Source of the DNA: a virus
DNA: 64,000 nt
IMG/VR virus record: IMGVR_UViG_3300036770_003984
Location: 32,001 to 96,000 of that record
Direction: 5' to 3' (one strand)
A program made the position numbers and the translations under genes. Shown here one piece after another: positions 24,924 to 52,203 of the stretch; positions within the stretch are counted from its first letter, which is position 1, and each line of letters opens with the position of its first letter. The notes beneath the pieces were generated by a model. The model made no database searches and was not told the origin of the DNA. It saw nothing but the letters and a program-made list of their open reading frames with translations.

Positions 24924-25304
24924 GGGGAGTAACTGGTATCGATTGACATTGTTGGTTATTAGGGGCATGTCAGACCTAAACTAAGTCTGTTAAACTGGTT
25001 TGAAACGATAGACGGCAACGTTATCAACAAACTTTCTGCAGTAGGTTTAATCCGTGCTGAAGAAGCAGTAGTAGCCTAGTCAATAGGGTATTACTTTCGA
25101 GTCGGGGTGCATTAACTCAGGAACAGGAGCACTATAGGGTTGTCTAATCAATTCTCATCCCTAAAAATGAATTGACCGATTTTGTTGATTTTGGGTGTAT
25201 AAAAATCAAATAGCTCGGAACATTGCGAATAATGTTGTCCTAAGCATGTAGTCCTTAGTAATTGAGATGGGCAAGAATTGGGTTCGATTCCCAAACTCTC
25301 CACC
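24924..25304 (+). ncRNA. ssrA: tmRNA
   Basis: GGGGAGU/ACUCUCC acceptor with G3:U70, T-arm TTGGG-TTCGATT-CCCAA, resume context ATAGAC-GGC, tag frame 25014..25079; 381 nt. Confidence 0.9.
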
Positions 25305-28373: not shown

Positions 28374-29384
28374 TTATTTTTCGTTTAACAAAAATTTGTT
28401 TGATATAACTTTGAATGATATTGTTCTATCATATGCTCTTATAACAACACCTTCCCTATCAAAGTTCCCATTAAGTTGAGATTTATCTTCAGCAAATAAC
28501 AATAATTCATCAATTGATTTTGGAAGTACAAATCCGTAATCTAATATTGGAACAGTTTTTAAACCCAAATCTTCCATTAACATTAGGAATTTAGTAAATG
28601 GGATATTTTTTTGTTCATCAATATTAAATGCGTTGAAGAATTTAACTGTTTGACCTTTTATCTTGTATGGGTTACCCTGGATTCCTTCTCCGATGATTTC
28701 ACCTTGAACACACATATTATAACCCAATTTAGATAAAGATTCCTCCAGATTCAATTCTCTTGCAACTTTCCAAAAGGAGTTACCCTCAGTCTCCAATAGC
28801 TCAAGATTTCTTGAACACACCCCAAATACACCATCCTTGTAATAGAATGTAGCACTTGATCCATCCAACTTCTCAGTGACATAAAATGCCTTACCAGACA
28901 ACCTAATATTTTCGTATTCACTTGATAAGTTTTGAATACGTTCTTCATCTGTTTTTCTTATAAAAGATGGAAACATACCTTTAACTTTACCTTGAAGTTC
29001 CGCTGGAATTGGGGGTTCGTATTTAAATATACCCAACATTTCAGTAACATCTTCTCCTTCAGTTATTTCCATAACAATTGGAAGAACACTTATTGGTAAT
29101 AATAGACCTTGACTTAATTGTCCTCTTAATCTTATTGTTTTCAATCTAAATCCTTCACTACCATCAGACATTTTTTTGTATGATGTTTTTCTTAAGAATT
29201 CAAATTCTTCTTTGATTGGTAAGAAGGAGTCAATCTCACAATAGATACAAAAGTCCCCAACTTTGTATTCTCCTTTTTTGGATACAACATCCCAGTTGTT
29301 TATTCTAACAACTTCTATAACGTCAGCCCCAACTATAGGTCTAACTTCTTTTACTATTTGTATACTCGCTAATTTTCTTTCCAT
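28374..29384 (-). CDS. ATP-dependent RNA ligase, DRB0094/Rnl-type family
   Basis: RKLASIQ N-domain, TEKLDGSS (motif I), QGEIIG, FFN, REGVV, FKVIS. Confidence 0.88.
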   Translation of the reverse strand: MERKLASIQIVKEVRPIVGADVIEVVRINNWDVVSKKGEYKVGDFCIYCEIDSFLPIKEEFEFLRKTSYKKMSDGSEGFRLKTIRLRGQLSQGLLLPISVLPIVMEITEGEDVTEMLGIFKYEPPIPAELQGKVKGMFPSFIRKTDEERIQNLSSEYENIRLSGKAFYVTEKLDGSSATFYYKDGVFGVCSRNLELLETEGNSFWKVARELNLEESLSKLGYNMCVQGEIIGEGIQGNPYKIKGQTVKFFNAFNIDEQKNIPFTKFLMLMEDLGLKTVPILDYGFVLPKSIDELLLFAEDKSQLNGNFDREGVVIRAYDRTISFKVISNKFLLNEK

Positions 29385-29385
29385 A

Positions 29386-29832
29386 TTAACTAAATTCATT
29401 ATTTGGTGAAACTCTTAATCCATCTATATATTCTTCTTTTACTTCAAAATCGTAGTGGTACTGACGTGGATGTTCTCTACGATATTTTTCATGATCATAA
29501 CCATCAGGTTGTCCCCATACTAACGCCATTGTAATAAACTCCTCAACATCCATTTCTTTACCATACTCATCTATAACTCTACCTGTTCTTATAAAGTTCA
29601 ATAATTCTTCTTTATTTGAATAAAATTTTTTGTCATTGAAATTCCATAAAAACTTCCAACCACTACTACGTTTACCTAAATGAATGTTTGTTCCATCAGT
29701 AAACAAATCCCAAATTGAATTACTTTCAATTGAAAGTTGTGAAATATCAATAGAATTAATATTATTAATCAATTCTTGTTTTCTTTTCTCCATTTCTTCC
29801 ACACTTGGAATTCTGTAGTAGTTTGTTCCCAT
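29386..29832 (-). CDS. Hypothetical protein
   Basis: MGTNYY...HLGKRSSGWKF; 148 aa. Confidence 0.7.
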   Translation of the reverse strand: MGTNYYRIPSVEEMEKRKQELINNINSIDISQLSIESNSIWDLFTDGTNIHLGKRSSGWKFLWNFNDKKFYSNKEELLNFIRTGRVIDEYGKEMDVEEFITMALVWGQPDGYDHEKYRREHPRQYHYDFEVKEEYIDGLRVSPNNEFS

Positions 29833-31953: not shown

Positions 31954-32187
31954 AATTCTTTTTTGCTTTTATTTTTACGTGAATATTGTTTTGAACTTTT
32001 GTGTACCTTAGTTACTGATACAAATCCGTGGGGATGTTTCTCCAAATATTCCAATCTAGCACCATTACCAATGGCATCAATAGTTATTCGTATTTTAGTC
32101 TTTGATTTCATAATATGTTTGGAATAAAGTTAATTTATGGTTTCTGATAATAGAACCAAACATACTAAAATAAAGTTCCTAAATAGG

Positions 32188-38978: not shown

Positions 38979-38992
38979 TTTTTAATAATTTG

Positions 38993-39078
38993 ACGCAAGG
39001 TCCAGATTCGAACTGGAGTTCCACTTTCGCAGAAGAGGCTTATGAGACCCCTGACATTGACCACTCGTCCACCTTGCG
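38993..39078 (-). tRNA. tRNA-Met/Ile2(CAT) with long variable arm
   Basis: CGCAAGG/CCTTGCG, GGGGT-CT-CAT-AA-GCCTC, variable arm TTCTGC-GAAA-GTGGAA. Confidence 0.75.
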
Positions 39079-39591: not shown

Positions 39592-39637
39592 CGATTTGAT
39601 TTTCTTAATTCCAAATCTTTTTTAAACTTTTTTTTTG

Positions 39638-39730
39638 TAGTCAGGATAGGATTCGAACCTATAACAGATTTGGTACTAATTTAATAGTTTGTAAAACCTC
39701 CCCCGTTTTCACCAGTTAAACTACCTAACT
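39638..39730 (-). ncRNA. tRNA-like RNA D (93 nt), no canonical anticodon arm
   Basis: AGTTAGG/CCTGACT-A, D arm GTTT/AAAC, T arm ATAGG/CCTAT. Confidence 0.6.
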
Positions 39731-39841
39731 ATAATTTAAACCTTTTTACCTTTCATTTAGTTCCAAGAACTAAAACTTTTTTTTAATAATCGGGCTACCC
39801 TCCTTTCGTCACAATCGCCCGACCATTGTGATTTCAGATTG

Positions 39842-39918
39842 TAGTCCTGACAGGATTCGAACCTGTAAACTTCCCCTTCACTTAAGGAGGGGTCACGTGT
39901 GCCTTCCGCCACAAGACT
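39842..39918 (-). ncRNA. tRNA-scaffold RNA E (77 nt), 10-nt anticodon loop
   Basis: Same acceptor/T arm as the family; CCCCT-CCTTAAGTGA-AGGGG. Confidence 0.65.
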
Positions 39919-43325: not shown

Positions 43326-44663
43326 TTAAATTAATATTATTTTTTTAATAATTGTATTCTCATCAATATTAATCTTAACTATATAAATTCCTTTTGACAA
43401 TGAGGATAAATCAATTTGAGATGTCGGATTCTCAATAACAAATTCAACCCCAAGTTCATTAAATAGTGAAATTCTATTAATATTTTTGGTTGTTTTTATA
43501 TTCAATATATCTTTTGTTGGATTGGGATATATTAATATATCATCGTTAATTTTATTTGAGATATTAATAATATTACTATAAGTTATATCACCACTATATT
43601 CAACAATTTTAAGTCTATAATAATTTTCTGAGTAAGTCAAATCATCAATATAATTCATTGTTAAATCATAAGGATAAATCTCAGAAATGGGATACAAATC
43701 ATAACCATTTGAACTCTTCTCCAACTCAATATAATTGACCTCTGTGACATCATCAAGTGTCCATTGAAGATTGACATCATCGTTGATTTTTGTCCCCTTA
43801 AATTCAATTATACCAATTGGTAATATTGTCCCACAATCAACCAATGTTGTTGATGAACCAATATTAATTGGGTCTAATAAGTTTGAATAATTATAAGTCC
43901 CCATTCTTAATGAATTTATAAAATATCTATTGGCATCATTATTTGGTTGACCTGGAGTTTCATTTGTTGGGGTAACACCTCTACTGAAATTGACTTTTGC
44001 TCCAAAACTACCACTATTGAAAAAATAATTTCTTTGCAATCCACTCCCTGTTATAATATTAAAAGATGAACCACCAAATGGAAAAGTGGGAAATGGGGTT
44101 GACACATCACCATATGAAAATCCGTGAAAAAATGAACCATTTGGACTTCTAACTTGTGCGGCATCACCATCATTTCTAAATCCAACCCTATCCCAAATTC
44201 TTGTTGCGGCATAACTAACTGGAGTATACAATGGATTTGTTGTTGTTGGTAAATTTGATGTATTATCCAAACACAAATCACTTATTGGTAAAATATAAAC
44301 ACAATCACCATCAAAATCTAATGGGTCTGGAGTTATCCCAAAAGTGGGATTAACATCAGCGCTATTATAAATTAAAATAATTGACCCAGGTTTTACATTG
44401 GATAAACATCCTGGTTTAATTCTTATATGACCTTGAGCAGTACCAACCCCACTTAAAACACCTTCAAAATCTCCATTATTATCATCTATTATCCATCCAC
44501 CCAAGTCTACACTTATTGTAGGGTTTGAAGTCGAGCCAATAACAACTAACTCAAAATATTCTCTGTTTCCAGAATCACCATTTGATATTTCATTTATTAT
44601 AAGACCTTGGGAATAAATTAAAAAAGGTAAAAAGATTAGTAAAATTAAATAGAAAATTTTCAT
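43326..44663 (-). CDS. T9SS type-A CTD protein with lamin-tail-like domain
   Basis: Signal peptide; LIINEI N-domain; ILPI..I.FKG linker; IYPNPT....NI...IDLSSLSKGIYIVKI......KII. Confidence 0.85.
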   Translation of the reverse strand: MKIFYLILLIFLPFLIYSQGLIINEISNGDSGNREYFELVVIGSTSNPTISVDLGGWIIDDNNGDFEGVLSGVGTAQGHIRIKPGCLSNVKPGSIILIYNSADVNPTFGITPDPLDFDGDCVYILPISDLCLDNTSNLPTTTNPLYTPVSYAATRIWDRVGFRNDGDAAQVRSPNGSFFHGFSYGDVSTPFPTFPFGGSSFNIITGSGLQRNYFFNSGSFGAKVNFSRGVTPTNETPGQPNNDANRYFINSLRMGTYNYSNLLDPINIGSSTTLVDCGTILPIGIIEFKGTKINDDVNLQWTLDDVTEVNYIELEKSSNGYDLYPISEIYPYDLTMNYIDDLTYSENYYRLKIVEYSGDITYSNIINISNKINDDILIYPNPTKDILNIKTTKNINRISLFNELGVEFVIENPTSQIDLSSLSKGIYIVKINIDENTIIKKIILI

Positions 44664-45875: not shown

Positions 45876-45927
45876 AAATATAAATATCAACAAAATGAGT
45901 AAAAATAACTAACTGAACTATTTTTTG

Positions 45928-46013
45928 AGGTCGGGGAGGGATTTGAACCCACGATGAATTTTTCATTCGATAGTTTTGCAGACTAGTGCCTTAACCAACT
46001 CGGCCACCCGACC
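45928..46013 (-). tRNA. tRNA-Cys(GCA) with long variable arm
   Basis: GGTCGGG/CCCGACC, U73, loop CT-GCA-AA, variable arm ATGAA-AAA-TTCAT. Confidence 0.78.
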
Positions 46014-46493: not shown

Positions 46494-46522
46494 TTTTTTT
46501 ATATTTTAAAAATCATTTAATG

Positions 46523-46607
46523 TGTCCTTACCTAGATTCGAACTAGGATTATACTTCTCGTCTCCACTTTGTAAGAGTGGGATGTTTAACCATTACACCA
46601 TAAGGAC
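46523..46607 (-). tRNA. tRNA-Val(TAC) with 16-nt variable region
   Basis: GTCCTTA/TAAGGAC-A, CCACT-CT-TAC-AA-AGTGG. Confidence 0.78.
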
Positions 46608-47185: not shown

Positions 47186-47201
47186 AATTTATTAAAATTT
47201 G

Positions 47202-47274
47202 CGTCCCAGGTAGGATTCGAACCTACGACAACTTGATTAACAGTCAAGGGCTACTACCACTGAGCTACTGAGAC
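47202..47274 (-). tRNA. tRNA-Asn(GTT)
   Basis: CTTGA-CT-GTT-AA-TCAAG, G73. Confidence 0.88.
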
Positions 47275-47282
47275 ATTTGTTG

Positions 47283-47359
47283 TCGGCAAGATAGGAATCG
47301 AACCTATATGTAACCAATTAACCTTTCTACCGTGTATCAGACGGAGGGTATACTTGCCG
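47283..47359 (-). tRNA. Rearranged tRNA-Ile(GAT)-like RNA
   Basis: 7-bp acceptor, A73, loop CT-GAT-AC, canonical T arm; no D arm 5' of the anticodon; D-loop-like AATTGGTTA lies 3' of it. Confidence 0.7.
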
Positions 47360-47372
47360 TATTATAATTCTG

Positions 47373-47449
47373 TAGGAAAGATGGGGTTCGAACCCATATG
47401 TTACCAGTTACCCTTTCTACGGCGTATAAGGCTGAGGGGATACTTTCCT
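47373..47449 (-). tRNA. Rearranged tRNA-Ile(TAT)-like RNA
   Basis: Paralog of 47283..47359 with compensatory changes; loop CT-TAT-AC. Confidence 0.7.
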
Positions 47450-47457
47450 AAATGTTG

Positions 47458-47542
47458 TAGAGTAGACAGGACTTGAACCTGCAGCGTCACTATGACCCTT
47501 GTTCCCAAAACAAGACGGCTTCCATTTACCGGGTACTACTCT
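47458..47542 (-). tRNA. tRNA-Pro(TGG) with long variable arm
   Basis: AGAGTAG/CTACTCT-A, CTTGT-TT-TGG-GA-ACAAG, variable hairpin GTCA-TAG-TGAC. Confidence 0.75.
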
Positions 47543-50733: not shown

Positions 50734-52137
50734 TTAAACTTCTATCATCTTGTATCTTTCGGACTCGATGGTTTCGGTCATAATTAATACTGGTGATAGT
50801 TCTTTTCCACCAAGAATTGACTTCAAGATTGATGGACTAAAACCAGATATTAACGCTGTACCACTTTCATTAAAACGAACTGGGAAGTTATCTCCTCTTG
50901 ATTGTATGTTCCAAAAGATAATACCAGGTAGTTGATATCCACTATTCTCATATTCTTCACGAATCATTTGAATTGCGGAATTATTACGCCCAGTTGCTTG
51001 ATTAAATTCCATATCCGATAAGATAAGGATTTTAGTCGGCATTTCACTTTGAGGTACATTGTGTTTAATTGATTGGTTTAGAATCAATTTGAACACAGAC
51101 TCCAAGTTTGTACTCATACCCCAATCAGCAGTACGTAGTTGTATGTATCTATTATATAGATTACCACTCAACTTTTGTAATTTTGGTTTTTCAGAGAATG
51201 TAATGAAAGAGTCTTTAAAAGAACCTTCATTTCTTTCTGAAATGTACAATCCCAATGATACTGCAACATCCATACAAGATAGATTATTGTTGTTACCAGC
51301 ACTAGTAGACATTGAACCTGATACATCAACTACTGGTAAAATTCTTTCGGTACTTCCTTCCATAAAGTTGGGAAGAGCTTTCCATTGTTCTACAGCCAAA
51401 TCTTTGACACCTTGCCCCAAAGTTTTAACTATATCATATGGATATACAGCCCCAGCATTTACTTTAGTTTCACCTTTTTTCAATGATTCCAAGTATACTC
51501 CAAAACCAGTTAAATCGTGTTTAGAGAATGCTTTGGTGTATCGAGCCATAGCTAAAGATGGTACTTTTGAGTATTCAATATTTGTCCACTCGTTAGCACA
51601 CATCTTTTGCTCGACCGTTTTGGAAAGAACAACCAACATTTTACGTAATGTTTTTGGTGTAAGACCCATAACCTTCCTGATTGAGTTAAAAATAACTCCT
51701 TTTCTTGGCATCCACTTTGCACATAGTCCATTTTTGGCTTCTAAACCTTGTACTATTGTGTCAATCGCATCGTCATTCACTTTTGTATTGAATAGGACTG
51801 TAAGATCGTCCCAACGACCGAATTCAGGGATGAATTTGATATTCTTTGCCAATACTTCTGGTGCCACCTCTGCTAAGAGTTGGATTATATCACGGAATAT
51901 TTGTCTTTCACCAGCACCACCACGAACATCTCTTACCCAAAATAATATACGCAATGCTGTCTGAGGATTCTCAATGAAAGCCTTTGAGAATAGACTTAAC
52001 AATCTTTCTTTGTCTTGTCCTCTCATTGCTCCAATGGTGAAGAATAGATTCACACACTCGTTAAGAGTTGATGAATTTGTAACCATACCATTTTCAGTTA
52101 AGGTATCTTCTGTTTGTAATGCGTCTAAGAAGTTCAT
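50734..52137 (-). CDS. TROVE/Ro60-like protein with vWA domain (DUF2828 family)
   Basis: TENG..SST, FWVRDVRGGAGER, GRWDD, AKWMPR, VVDVSGSM (MIDAS), ILSDMEF, FWN, SGFSP. Confidence 0.8.
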   Translation of the reverse strand: MNFLDALQTEDTLTENGMVTNSSTLNECVNLFFTIGAMRGQDKERLLSLFSKAFIENPQTALRILFWVRDVRGGAGERQIFRDIIQLLAEVAPEVLAKNIKFIPEFGRWDDLTVLFNTKVNDDAIDTIVQGLEAKNGLCAKWMPRKGVIFNSIRKVMGLTPKTLRKMLVVLSKTVEQKMCANEWTNIEYSKVPSLAMARYTKAFSKHDLTGFGVYLESLKKGETKVNAGAVYPYDIVKTLGQGVKDLAVEQWKALPNFMEGSTERILPVVDVSGSMSTSAGNNNNLSCMDVAVSLGLYISERNEGSFKDSFITFSEKPKLQKLSGNLYNRYIQLRTADWGMSTNLESVFKLILNQSIKHNVPQSEMPTKILILSDMEFNQATGRNNSAIQMIREEYENSGYQLPGIIFWNIQSRGDNFPVRFNESGTALISGFSPSILKSILGGKELSPVLIMTETIESERYKMIEV

Positions 52138-52203
52138 AATATTCTGTTTTTGAATTTGTTTTGAAAGTATATAATTAATACTTTGGTTTGTCAAGGGTTT
52201 TGA

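Follow-up and report, generated by a model that had tools for sequence, protein, structure and literature searches.

The cloverleaf is treated as universal for tRNAs that work on bacterial ribosomes, and its known exceptions are organellar. The D-armless tRNAs of mitochondria, for example metazoan mt-tRNA-Ser(AGY/UCU) and those of nematodes, form a three-way junction in which the acceptor and anticodon stems are not separated by a D hairpin; they are shortened, have lost the D-loop and T-loop contacts, and are served by dedicated organellar factors (review PMC7609411). In the red alga Cyanidioschyzon merolae, tRNA genes are circularly permuted at their termini, and processing restores normal mature tRNAs. 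That the fold tolerates re-connection of its backbone is known from engineered circularly permuted tRNAs. Bacteria and phages also contain allo-tRNAs and (8/4) and (9/3) tRNAs, with altered acceptor and T stem lengths and long variable arms (Mukai et al., 2017, PMC5389517).

The two phage genes described here share with canonical tRNA-Ile(GAU) and the rarer tRNA-Ile(UAU) a 7-bp acceptor stem, A73, a 5-bp T arm with a standard T loop, a 7-nt anticodon loop with U33, A35, U36 and A37, a location in a phage tRNA array, and equivalents of U8, A14, G18G19, A21 and an R15:Y48-type pair. They differ from canonical tRNA-Ile in lacking a D hairpin between positions 9 and 26. The putative D-stem strands flank the anticodon arm, positions 46-47 are gone, an invariant GAAA connector is added, and 27:43 is U.U. 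As in the D-armless mitochondrial tRNAs, the secondary structure is a three-way junction without a D hairpin between the acceptor and anticodon stems, but here all D-arm elements are kept and merely moved, the length is 77 nt, and ordinary bacterial enzymes must suffice. The C. merolae genes likewise have a segment order that departs from that of the cloverleaf; in the phage genes, however, the permutation is confined to the inner D/anticodon domain and leaves the acceptor ends normal, with no hint of re-joining. Allo-tRNAs and (8/4) and (9/3) tRNAs, which also have a non-standard architecture, occur in metagenomes and phages and are missed by standard annotation, keep cloverleaf connectivity, unlike the rewired genes. 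No published description of the rewired class was found in the open-access literature that we searched (subscription journals were outside the scope), and a 2020 review of non-canonical tRNAs (PMC7609411) makes no mention of phages.

Two tRNA-like genes without a D hairpin in a phage tRNA array

The window analysed here is a stretch of 64,000 nucleotides (positions 32,001 to 96,000 of IMG/VR record IMGVR_UViG_3300036770_003984), and it belongs to a phage, with genes for a major head protein, a portal and a large terminase. On the minus strand of 47283-47449 there are two 77-nt tRNA-like paralogs (47359..47283 and 47449..47373), called the GAU and UAU genes here after their anticodons. Both have a perfect 7-bp acceptor stem (CGGCAAG/CTTGCCG in the GAU gene, AGGAAAG/CTTTCCT in the UAU gene), A as the discriminator, a 5-bp T arm with a TTCGAxx loop, and an anticodon loop reading CTGATAC (anticodon GAU) or CTTATAC (anticodon UAU). 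A D hairpin is absent from both: only 6-7 nt separate position 9 from the anticodon arm, and the 5' connector from the acceptor stem to the 4-bp anticodon stem consists of just TA, T(A/C)CC and CT. The anticodon arm is followed on its 3' side by AGAAA, the strand GG(T/G)T (GGUU or GGGU), AATTGGTTA or AACTGGTAA, CAT and the T arm; the sequence between the GGUU or GGGU strand and the T arm is AAUUGGUUACAU or AACUGGUAACAU in the two genes. At index pair 11:39 the paralogs differ on both sides, with C11:G39 in the UAU gene and A11:U39 in the GAU gene. The coordinates of all elements and of the neighbouring tRNA genes are given in Table 1.

Table 1. Elements of the two rewired genes and their neighbours in the array. 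Positions are those of the window; index 1 corresponds to 47359 in the GAU gene and to 47449 in the UAU gene.
Feature	Position	Strand	Evidence and remarks
Putative rewired tRNA-Ile(GAU), 77 nt	47283..47359	minus	Sequence; Rfam 31.1 bits; R1 97.6 bits; ARAGORN no call
GAU gene, acceptor 5' strand	47353..47359	minus	Pairs with 47284-47290; discriminator A is 47283
GAU gene, UACC, equivalent of D-stem 22-25	47347..47350	minus	Pairs with 47320-47323; directly after U8 A9 (47352-47351)
GAU gene, anticodon arm	47329..47345	minus	4 Watson-Crick pairs, U.U closing pair, loop CUGAUAC
GAU gene, anticodon GAU	47338-47336	minus	
GAU gene, AGAAA connector (positions 44-45 plus AAA linker)	47324..47328	minus	
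GAU gene, GGUU, equivalent of D-stem 10-13	47320..47323	minus	Covariation, MI, RNAalifold
GAU gene, putative relocated D-loop AAUUGGUUACA + U	47308..47319	minus	Equivalents of A14, R15, G18G19 and A21, then Y48
GAU gene, T arm, 5 bp, loop UUCGAUU	47291..47307	minus	
Putative rewired tRNA-Ile(UAU), 77 nt	47373..47449	minus	Rfam 28.6 bits; R1 90.1 bits; ARAGORN no call
UAU gene, UCCC, equivalent of 22-25	47437..47440	minus	Pairs with GGGU at 47410-47413
UAU gene, anticodon arm, loop CUUAUAC	47419..47435	minus	Anticodon UAU at 47428-47426
UAU gene, putative relocated D-loop AACUGGUAACA + U	47398..47409	minus	
UAU gene, T arm	47381..47397	minus	
Canonical tRNA-Asn(GUU)	47201..47274	minus	Downstream neighbour in the same array; ARAGORN and Rfam
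tRNA-Pro(UGG), 86 nt, long variable arm	47457..47542	minus	Upstream neighbour in the same array

A preliminary description, made from the sequence alone, had reported the size and coordinates of the genes, their acceptor stems, A73, T arms, loops and connector, and these held in every detail. Its statement that the genes have no room for a D arm also held; the D-stem strands flank the anticodon arm instead.

Standard tools handle the two genes poorly. ARAGORN called 24 tRNAs and one tmRNA in the window and neither of the 77-nt genes. The Rfam tRNA model RF00005, with a gathering cut-off of 29 bits, places the GAU gene just above and the UAU gene just below that value (Table 1), and its alignment of both deletes the D arm (15 model positions, cmscan) and inserts 18 nt in the variable region. 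Scores with R1, a model of the family described below, are far higher (Table 1). Single-sequence folding was uninformative, with z-scores of -1.0 and -0.4, and the minimum free energy (MFE) structure of the GAU copy includes the 11-13:37-39 helix. The UAU copy has an A:C mismatch within its 4-bp anticodon stem (index 17:29); the same mismatch is seen in its closest relatives, L012, L054 and L115. A weak match to YrlA / Y-RNA (16.5 bits, E = 1) was dismissed as tRNA-likeness. The genes and their layout are nevertheless real, and the pattern is far beyond chance: 132 distinct sequences show it, and every helix has undergone compensatory changes.

A large family that is rarely detected

Members of the family were collected with sequence patterns. 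A 17-base pattern taken from the relocated D-loop region matched more than 116 viral contigs, and all but a handful of the matches were the same 77-nt RNA. Further members came from a second pattern, built on the 5' part and including the GAU anticodon. The Ile family so assembled comprises 132 distinct sequences in 221 places, nearly all on phage contigs, and 120 of the 132 are exactly 77 nt long. Their anticodons are GAU (76) and UAU (56), with a small CAU group (8 places); no others were found, even with the anticodon left free in the search. Collecting members by pattern limits how much variation can be seen at the positions that the patterns fix.

ARAGORN detects the family at 6 of its 221 places, so the expectation that cloverleaf scanners would miss such genes was borne out both in the window, where it found neither, and across the family. 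R1 gives 88-96 bits to members that the model had not seen and at most 26 bits to canonical tRNAs. The preliminary description had proposed as a check that homologs should preserve the helix flanking the anticodon arm. Such homologs exist among the 132 distinct sequences.

Covariation in the acceptor, anticodon, T and relocated helices

Covariation was assessed in an ungapped alignment, A2, of 82 diverse members. Over the whole structure 93.3% of cells are paired, compared with 60.7% in shuffles and at most 47% when the structure is slid along the alignment, and the covariation score is 0.842 compared with 0.203 in shuffles. All seven acceptor pairs covary (97.9% of cells paired), as do all four pairs of the anticodon stem (99.1%) and every pair of the T stem. 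The U.U pair that closes the anticodon stem (27:43) is invariant in the Ile family.

The helix that flanks the anticodon arm is supported pair by pair. At 11:39 all four Watson-Crick types occur (CG 37, AU 34, UA 9, GC 2) and none of the 82 members is unpaired. Pair 12:38 is CG in 78 and UG in 3, with U12:A38 in Kehishuvirus; 13:37 is CG in 82/82, with G13:C37 in a relative, TunaTartare. Position 10:40 is U.U in 81 of the 82, and the relocated 'D stem' thus has three proven pairs only. In an unbiased MI/APC scan, 11:39 ranks fifth of 2926 column pairs. The only pair outside the helices among the top 16 is 42:52, the equivalent of 15:48 (AU 53, GC 14). RNAalifold, unaided, yields the same four helices, including 11-13:37-39. 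The pairing that had been proposed between the 5' segment and the segment 3' of the anticodon arm therefore held for 11-13:37-39 by three approaches (82-member covariation, MI and RNAalifold), while its fourth position, 10:40, is a U.U.

Two other pairings were considered and rejected. In the MFE structure of the GAU copy, 15:32 and 14:33 are paired instead, which makes the helix continuous and leaves U31 and AAA as bulges; covariation does not support this alternative, since N32 is variable and U15 and C14 are invariant. A hairpin within 37-50 has no MI signal.

Mapping onto canonical tRNA and the predicted L-shape

We infer that the layout is very likely [1-9][22-45]-AAA-[10-21][48-76] in canonical numbering, so that the D/anticodon domain is circularly permuted within the molecule. 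Like 22-25 in the cloverleaf, the strand next to U8 A9 enters the anticodon stem in the 5'-to-3' direction. On the 3' side of the anticodon arm, the other strand leads away from the arm, and A, R, N, N, G, G come immediately after it. The order was assigned because these flanking strands behave as 22-25 and 10-13, respectively, the latter with A14, R15 .. G18 G19 coming next.

The residues that this mapping places in the tertiary core are strongly conserved. Invariant columns in A2 are U8, A9, A41 (=A14), G46 (=G19), A51 (=A21), G57, U59, C60 and A77 (=A73), and in the Ile family G45 (=G18) is near-invariant and G33 and A34-A36 of the connector are invariant. The T loop keeps G53, U54, U55, C56 and A58. 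The Levitt-type pair is less uniform: among the 57 members in which the search pattern left the D-loop free, R15:Y48 is found in 37, and about a third have a non-standard 15:48 combination (GG 7, AC 7, others 6).

When the segments were put back into cloverleaf order in silico, ARAGORN reported a tRNA-Ile in 120/120 sequences, compared with 1/120 in the native order. Re-ordering controls were leaky (32-60 of 120 detected), so that we regard this test as supportive and not decisive. Compared with canonical tRNAs, the re-ordered sequences match tRNA-Ile best (median 18, at most 13 for the others), a weak result that owes much to the shared anticodon loop.

Would a chain connected in this way be compatible with the L-shape? 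In tRNA-Phe, positions 8/9 lie close to the 13:22 end of the D stem, 45 is in the same layer as 10:25, and A21 is in the layer under 15:48. The new joins would thus link residues that are already neighbours in the L-shape. In the proposed structure, U8 A9 would lead straight into D-stem strand 22-25 and then the anticodon arm, the GAAA connector would join the anticodon arm to D-stem strand 10-13, and that strand would continue through the D-loop (A14, R15, G18G19, A21) to Y48 and the T arm. The secondary structure would be a three-way junction of a long coaxial D-stem/anticodon-stem arm and an acceptor/T minihelix, in which the relocated D-loop would be able to form the 8:14, 15:48 and G18G19:T-loop contacts that build the L-shape. 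The preliminary description had inferred the same L-shape with permuted connectivity. We find this likely, although the fold itself remains an inference and its support is indirect, coming from the near-invariant core residues (U8, A14, G18G19, A21) and the covariation of 42:52.

A sister class with arginine anticodons

A structure-only descriptor, in which sequence was constrained at U8 A9, U33, R37, GG and the T loop alone, was run over 2.7 Mb of loci. It recovered the Ile family together with members that carry Arg anticodons, and it returned no matches on the reversed sequence compared with more than 130 on the real sequence. Pattern scans gave 18 distinct Arg members with ACG or UCU anticodons and the descriptor added two more; the anticodons of the rewired Arg type are ACG, UCU and UCG. 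Cultured carriers of this type are Microbacterium phage A3Wally, Streptomyces phage TunaTartare and Vibrio phage 1.101.O.

RNAalifold gives the Arg members the topology of the Ile family. ARAGORN finds 0/18 of them in native order and 18/18 after re-ordering, and R1, although built on Ile members, scores them at 44-78 bits, above the ceiling for canonical tRNAs. The two types have in common the UA, a 3-4-nt strand, the anticodon arm, a connector, the complementary strand, a D-loop with GG, and the T arm. The Arg type differs in having A and not U after G18G19, a full 5-bp anticodon stem, a variable discriminator and, in a UCAC/GUGU subgroup, a variable 4-nt connector.

The base after G18G19 is of particular interest. 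It is A in 23/23 Arg members and U in 53/57 Ile members whose D-loop was unconstrained by the pattern, and A3Wally combines an Ile-type scaffold with an ACG anticodon and A20. In bacteria, A20 is a major identity nucleotide for ArgRS. Because the anticodon and the identity base of the relocated loop change together, which would otherwise be hard to explain, synthetases appear to read this loop in its usual place. From this A20/U20 split we argue that host synthetases likely read the moved D-loop; charging itself is inferred.

A probable role in decoding isoleucine codons

The genes, their helices and covariation, the family and its restriction to phage contigs are established. That the two genes are functional phage tRNA-Ile genes, belonging to a widespread phage-borne permuted class, is in our view likely, with the L-shape, processing and CCA addition, expression, charging and decoding all inferred. 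The identity of bacterial tRNA-Ile rests on an Ile anticodon (G34 or a modified 34, A35, U36), A37 and A73. Both genes meet this set, although aminoacylation itself is again an inference. In the family, A73 is present in 132/132 members and the anticodon loop is always C-U-N-A-U-A, with U33, A35 and U36 present and A37 invariant. The GAU gene would read AUU/AUC and the UAU gene AUA. With charging by the host IleRS, the pair would serve the very frequent AUU and AUA codons of this phage, which has 28.9% GC and uses AUU at 47, AUA at 30 and all Ile codons at 85 per 1000 codons.

The tRNA repertoire is consistent with such a role. In the whole 128.5-kb record, the 24 canonical tRNAs serve 19 amino acids and none is a tRNA-Ile, though the record is only ~43% of the genome and the missing part could hold one. 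The preliminary claim that these are the only Ile candidates therefore held for this record; other carriers also have canonical Ile tRNAs. In carriers where a rewired gene and a canonical tRNA-Ile occur in the same locus, the anticodons tend to be complementary: rewired GAU goes with canonical UAU in 29 cases and GAU in 10, and rewired UAU with canonical GAU in 15 and UAU in 2 (canonical tRNAs as found by ARAGORN; Fisher p = 2e-5, uncorrected for phylogeny). Canonical tRNA-Ile(GAU) and (UAU) are both also present in Jay2Jay and in the complete 363-kb phage G001. Because of this, the rewired gene is an extra copy in these two phages and is not generally indispensable.

No IleRS-type class-I synthetase (PF00133) was found in six carriers (the 128.5-kb record, Jay2Jay, Kehishuvirus tikkala, LR756500.1 and two complete huge phages); two of the six are complete genomes and the window's record is incomplete. 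The host enzyme would therefore have to charge the rewired tRNA-Ile. Neither a CCA-adding enzyme nor TilS was found in the incomplete 128.5-kb record. The 3' trailer starts with C in ~124 of the 132 members, and the full CCA is encoded in 15.

Evidence for expression is slight. In a freshwater metatranscriptome, one 204-nt contig is identical to 47327-47530, covering the whole UAU gene and parts of both neighbours. It is possible that this reflects transcription, but the contig is at most a hint and proves neither transcription nor ends nor strand, since contigs from RNA libraries cannot show these and DNA may be present.

Carriers and hosts

Among cultured phages, the Ile type is carried by ~80 members of Streptomyces cluster BE and by the crAss-like Kehishuvirus tikkala, cr130_1 and bajarodcaudo virus 1. 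Nearly all of these records leave the gene unannotated; the EGole record names it tRNA-Leu(UUA), and in Coruscant it lies under a CDS.

An exact-pattern scan of 185,579 species genomes gave 34 matches, of which ~11 are true members, all on MAGs or uncultured contigs and none in an isolate genome; two of the ~11 contigs agree with IMG/VR phage contigs, one having exactly the same length and the other almost the same. Among 151 genomes from the family to which a Flavobacterium isolate belongs, R1 had no matches, while two positive-control MAGs did score. One of these controls has two copies on a 400-kb contig whose phage or prophage nature is unsettled.

A Bacteroidota host had been suggested for the window's phage and is plausible, because the ORF at 43326-44663 has a T9SS sorting domain. 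The window also encodes an RNA ligase at 28374-29399. As context only, we observe that carriers, for example the window's phage and Jay2Jay, often encode RNA ligase, polynucleotide kinase and Ro-like proteins.

Alternative explanations

The weak points of our reading are that there is no direct evidence of a mature RNA, CCA addition, aminoacylation or use by the ribosome, and that the anticodon stem has just four Watson-Crick pairs and the invariant U.U, with the A:C in the window's UAU copy.

The rival that survives best, although we consider it unlikely, is that these RNAs are charged but behave like mitochondrial D-armless tRNAs, as a flexible three-way junction that has an extended anticodon arm and does not rebuild the canonical D-loop/T-loop/Levitt core. 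On this view the D-loop-like motif is a relic or serves synthetase recognition only. In its favour, the secondary structure is formally a three-way junction lacking a D hairpin, the relocated helix has three proven pairs with 10:40 a U.U, 15:48 is non-standard in about a third of unconstrained members, and there is no 3D evidence. Against it, the equivalents of A14, G18G19 and A21 are invariant and stand at canonical spacing right after the 10-13 strand. The 42:52 pair covaries as R:Y, the only non-helix pair among the top MI signals, and the T loop retains G53, U54, U55, C56 and A58. In addition, A20 follows the Arg anticodon in 23/23 members, which is sensible if the loop sits where ArgRS expects it.

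A second rival, which we think very unlikely, is that the genes make tRNA-like decoys or regulators that never deliver isoleucine, such as baits for host or phage anticodon nucleases, competitors for IleRS, or substrates for RNA repair. In its favour, RNA ligase, polynucleotide kinase and Ro-like proteins are frequent in carriers, some carriers have a full canonical Ile set, and there are no charging data. However, a decoy needs no perfect covarying 7-bp acceptor stem, invariant A73, intact T loop or complementary anticodon. The two genes fill the only gap in a 20-amino-acid set in a phage with 85 Ile codons per 1000, and the Arg versions bear the ArgRS identity base A20.

The remaining possibilities, that the genes are decayed pseudogenes, chance tRNA-likes, or precursors cut and re-joined to a cloverleaf, can point to the missing ARAGORN call, the marginal Rfam scores and the stem mismatch of the UAU copy, but they are all but excluded: 132 distinct sequences keep an identical layout with compensatory changes in all helices, this covariation effectively refuting the pseudogene and chance readings, the structure-only descriptor separates real from reversed sequence, no bulge-helix-bulge or intron-like signals are present in these genes, and bacteria are not known to have a pathway for such re-joining, which would take two cuts and a transposition.

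Implications

A bolder reading goes further than the permuted tRNA-Ile genes that we favour. It holds that phages of at least three bacterial phyla (Actinomycetota, Bacteroidota and Pseudomonadota) have a class of Ile and Arg tRNAs (perhaps also Ile2/Met) with the D/anticodon domain circularly permuted inside an unchanged acceptor/T frame, that these take up the normal L-shape, are charged by ordinary host synthetases and decode on bacterial ribosomes, and that phages keep them as poor substrates for host or phage nucleases that destroy canonical tRNAs in infection. We put this forward tentatively; as a joint proposal it is more likely to fail in one of its parts than to stand as a whole. Its last element, the evasion of host tRNA nucleases, had already been suggested in the preliminary description and is speculation, with no supporting evidence.

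If the bolder reading is true, these would be the first natural non-cloverleaf tRNAs in bacterial translation. Phage tRNA repertoires are systematically under-counted, with an unannotated or mis-named copy in ~80 cultured Streptomyces phages and several crAss-like genomes. Orthogonal tRNA design can also draw on the class for natural scaffolds. Both function and any anti-nuclease advantage are directly testable in carriers that are in culture (Streptomyces cluster BE phages, Kehishuvirus tikkala, A3Wally and Vibrio phage 1.101.O). A conserved class of this kind would show that the translation apparatus requires the L-shape and not cloverleaf connectivity.

Related rewired tRNAs

Parallel to the rewired tRNA-Ile genes is a family of rewired tRNA-Arg genes (anticodons ACG, UCU and UCG) with an identical topology, in which the base following the D-loop G18G19 is A in 23/23 members. 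Three cultured phages carry such a gene (A3Wally, L306; TunaTartare, L308; Vibrio phage 1.101.O, L307), and it is unannotated in all three records inspected. The rewired tRNA-Ile(GAU) of Streptomyces phages is labeled tRNA-Leu(UUA) in EGole (gene 108, L119:1495-1571), in Coruscant (MT711976.1, 73031-73099) it is covered by an FtsK-like CDS, and in ~78 further cluster BE records it carries no annotation.

Two variants were found within the Ile scaffold. A small subgroup, present at eight places, has a CAU anticodon in the loop CUCAUAA; it could be either Ile2, a lysidine substrate, or Met. In the other subgroup, Ile(GAU) genes of 76 nt, the D-loop is shorter by a single base, the Levitt-type pair 15:48 is G.G, and the last acceptor pair, 7:66, is a purine-purine mismatch in every member.

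One 400-kb contig from an Erysipelotrichaceae MAG carries two rewired tRNAs, L309 and L311 (G004:C1:322617-323626), adjoined by canonical Trp, Cys, His and Arg tRNAs. This contig might be chromosomal, or it might represent a prophage or a huge phage.

Genomic surroundings and structurally odd tRNAs

The Por_Secre_tail (T9SS) ORF in the window suggests a Bacteroidota host. In the Streptomyces phage Jay2Jay, Ro, RNA ligase and polynucleotide kinase genes occupy a position similar to that of the window's RNA ligase and DUF2828/DUF7788 genes.

Features of the window and members of the rewired tRNA groups
Feature	Location	Strand	Remarks
tmRNA, phage-encoded	window 24924-25304	+	tag peptide GNVINKLSAVGLIRAEEAVVA; Rfam 87.2 bits
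RNA ligase	window 28374-29399	-	PF09414 + OB domain; close to tRNA array
tRNA, CAU anticodon	window 38992-39078		long variable arm; U discriminator
'tRNA-Val(UAC)'	window 39637-39730	-	94 nt; odd-looking structure; Rfam 44 bits (low)
'tRNA-Leu(UAA)'	window 39841-39918	-	78 nt; odd-looking structure; Rfam 38 bits (low)
Por_Secre_tail ORF	window 43326-44663	-	445 aa; T9SS C-terminal sorting domain; amid tRNA genes
tRNA-Cys	window 45927-46013		long variable arm
tRNA-Val	window 46522-46607		long variable arm
tRNA-Pro	window 47457-47542		long variable arm
DUF2828/DUF7788 protein	window 50734-52194	-	486 aa; PHROGs 'RNA-binding protein'; close to tRNA array
Rewired tRNA-Arg	L089:634-709; L158:7912-7987; L284:11740-11815; L010:2864-2942		plus others
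Rewired CAU subgroup	L008:462-538; L251-L257		
76-nt Ile(GAU) subgroup	L180:5865-5940; L195:4713-4788; L227:1078-1153; L231:6997-7072; L234:4683-4758		

Several window tRNAs of normally class I kinds bear class-II-like long variable arms. The complete 363-kb phage genome G001 (loci L258-L276) encodes long Pro, Gln, Glu, Val, Trp, Thr, Cys and Met tRNAs beside normal-size copies, and may be keeping a second, structurally odd tRNA set.
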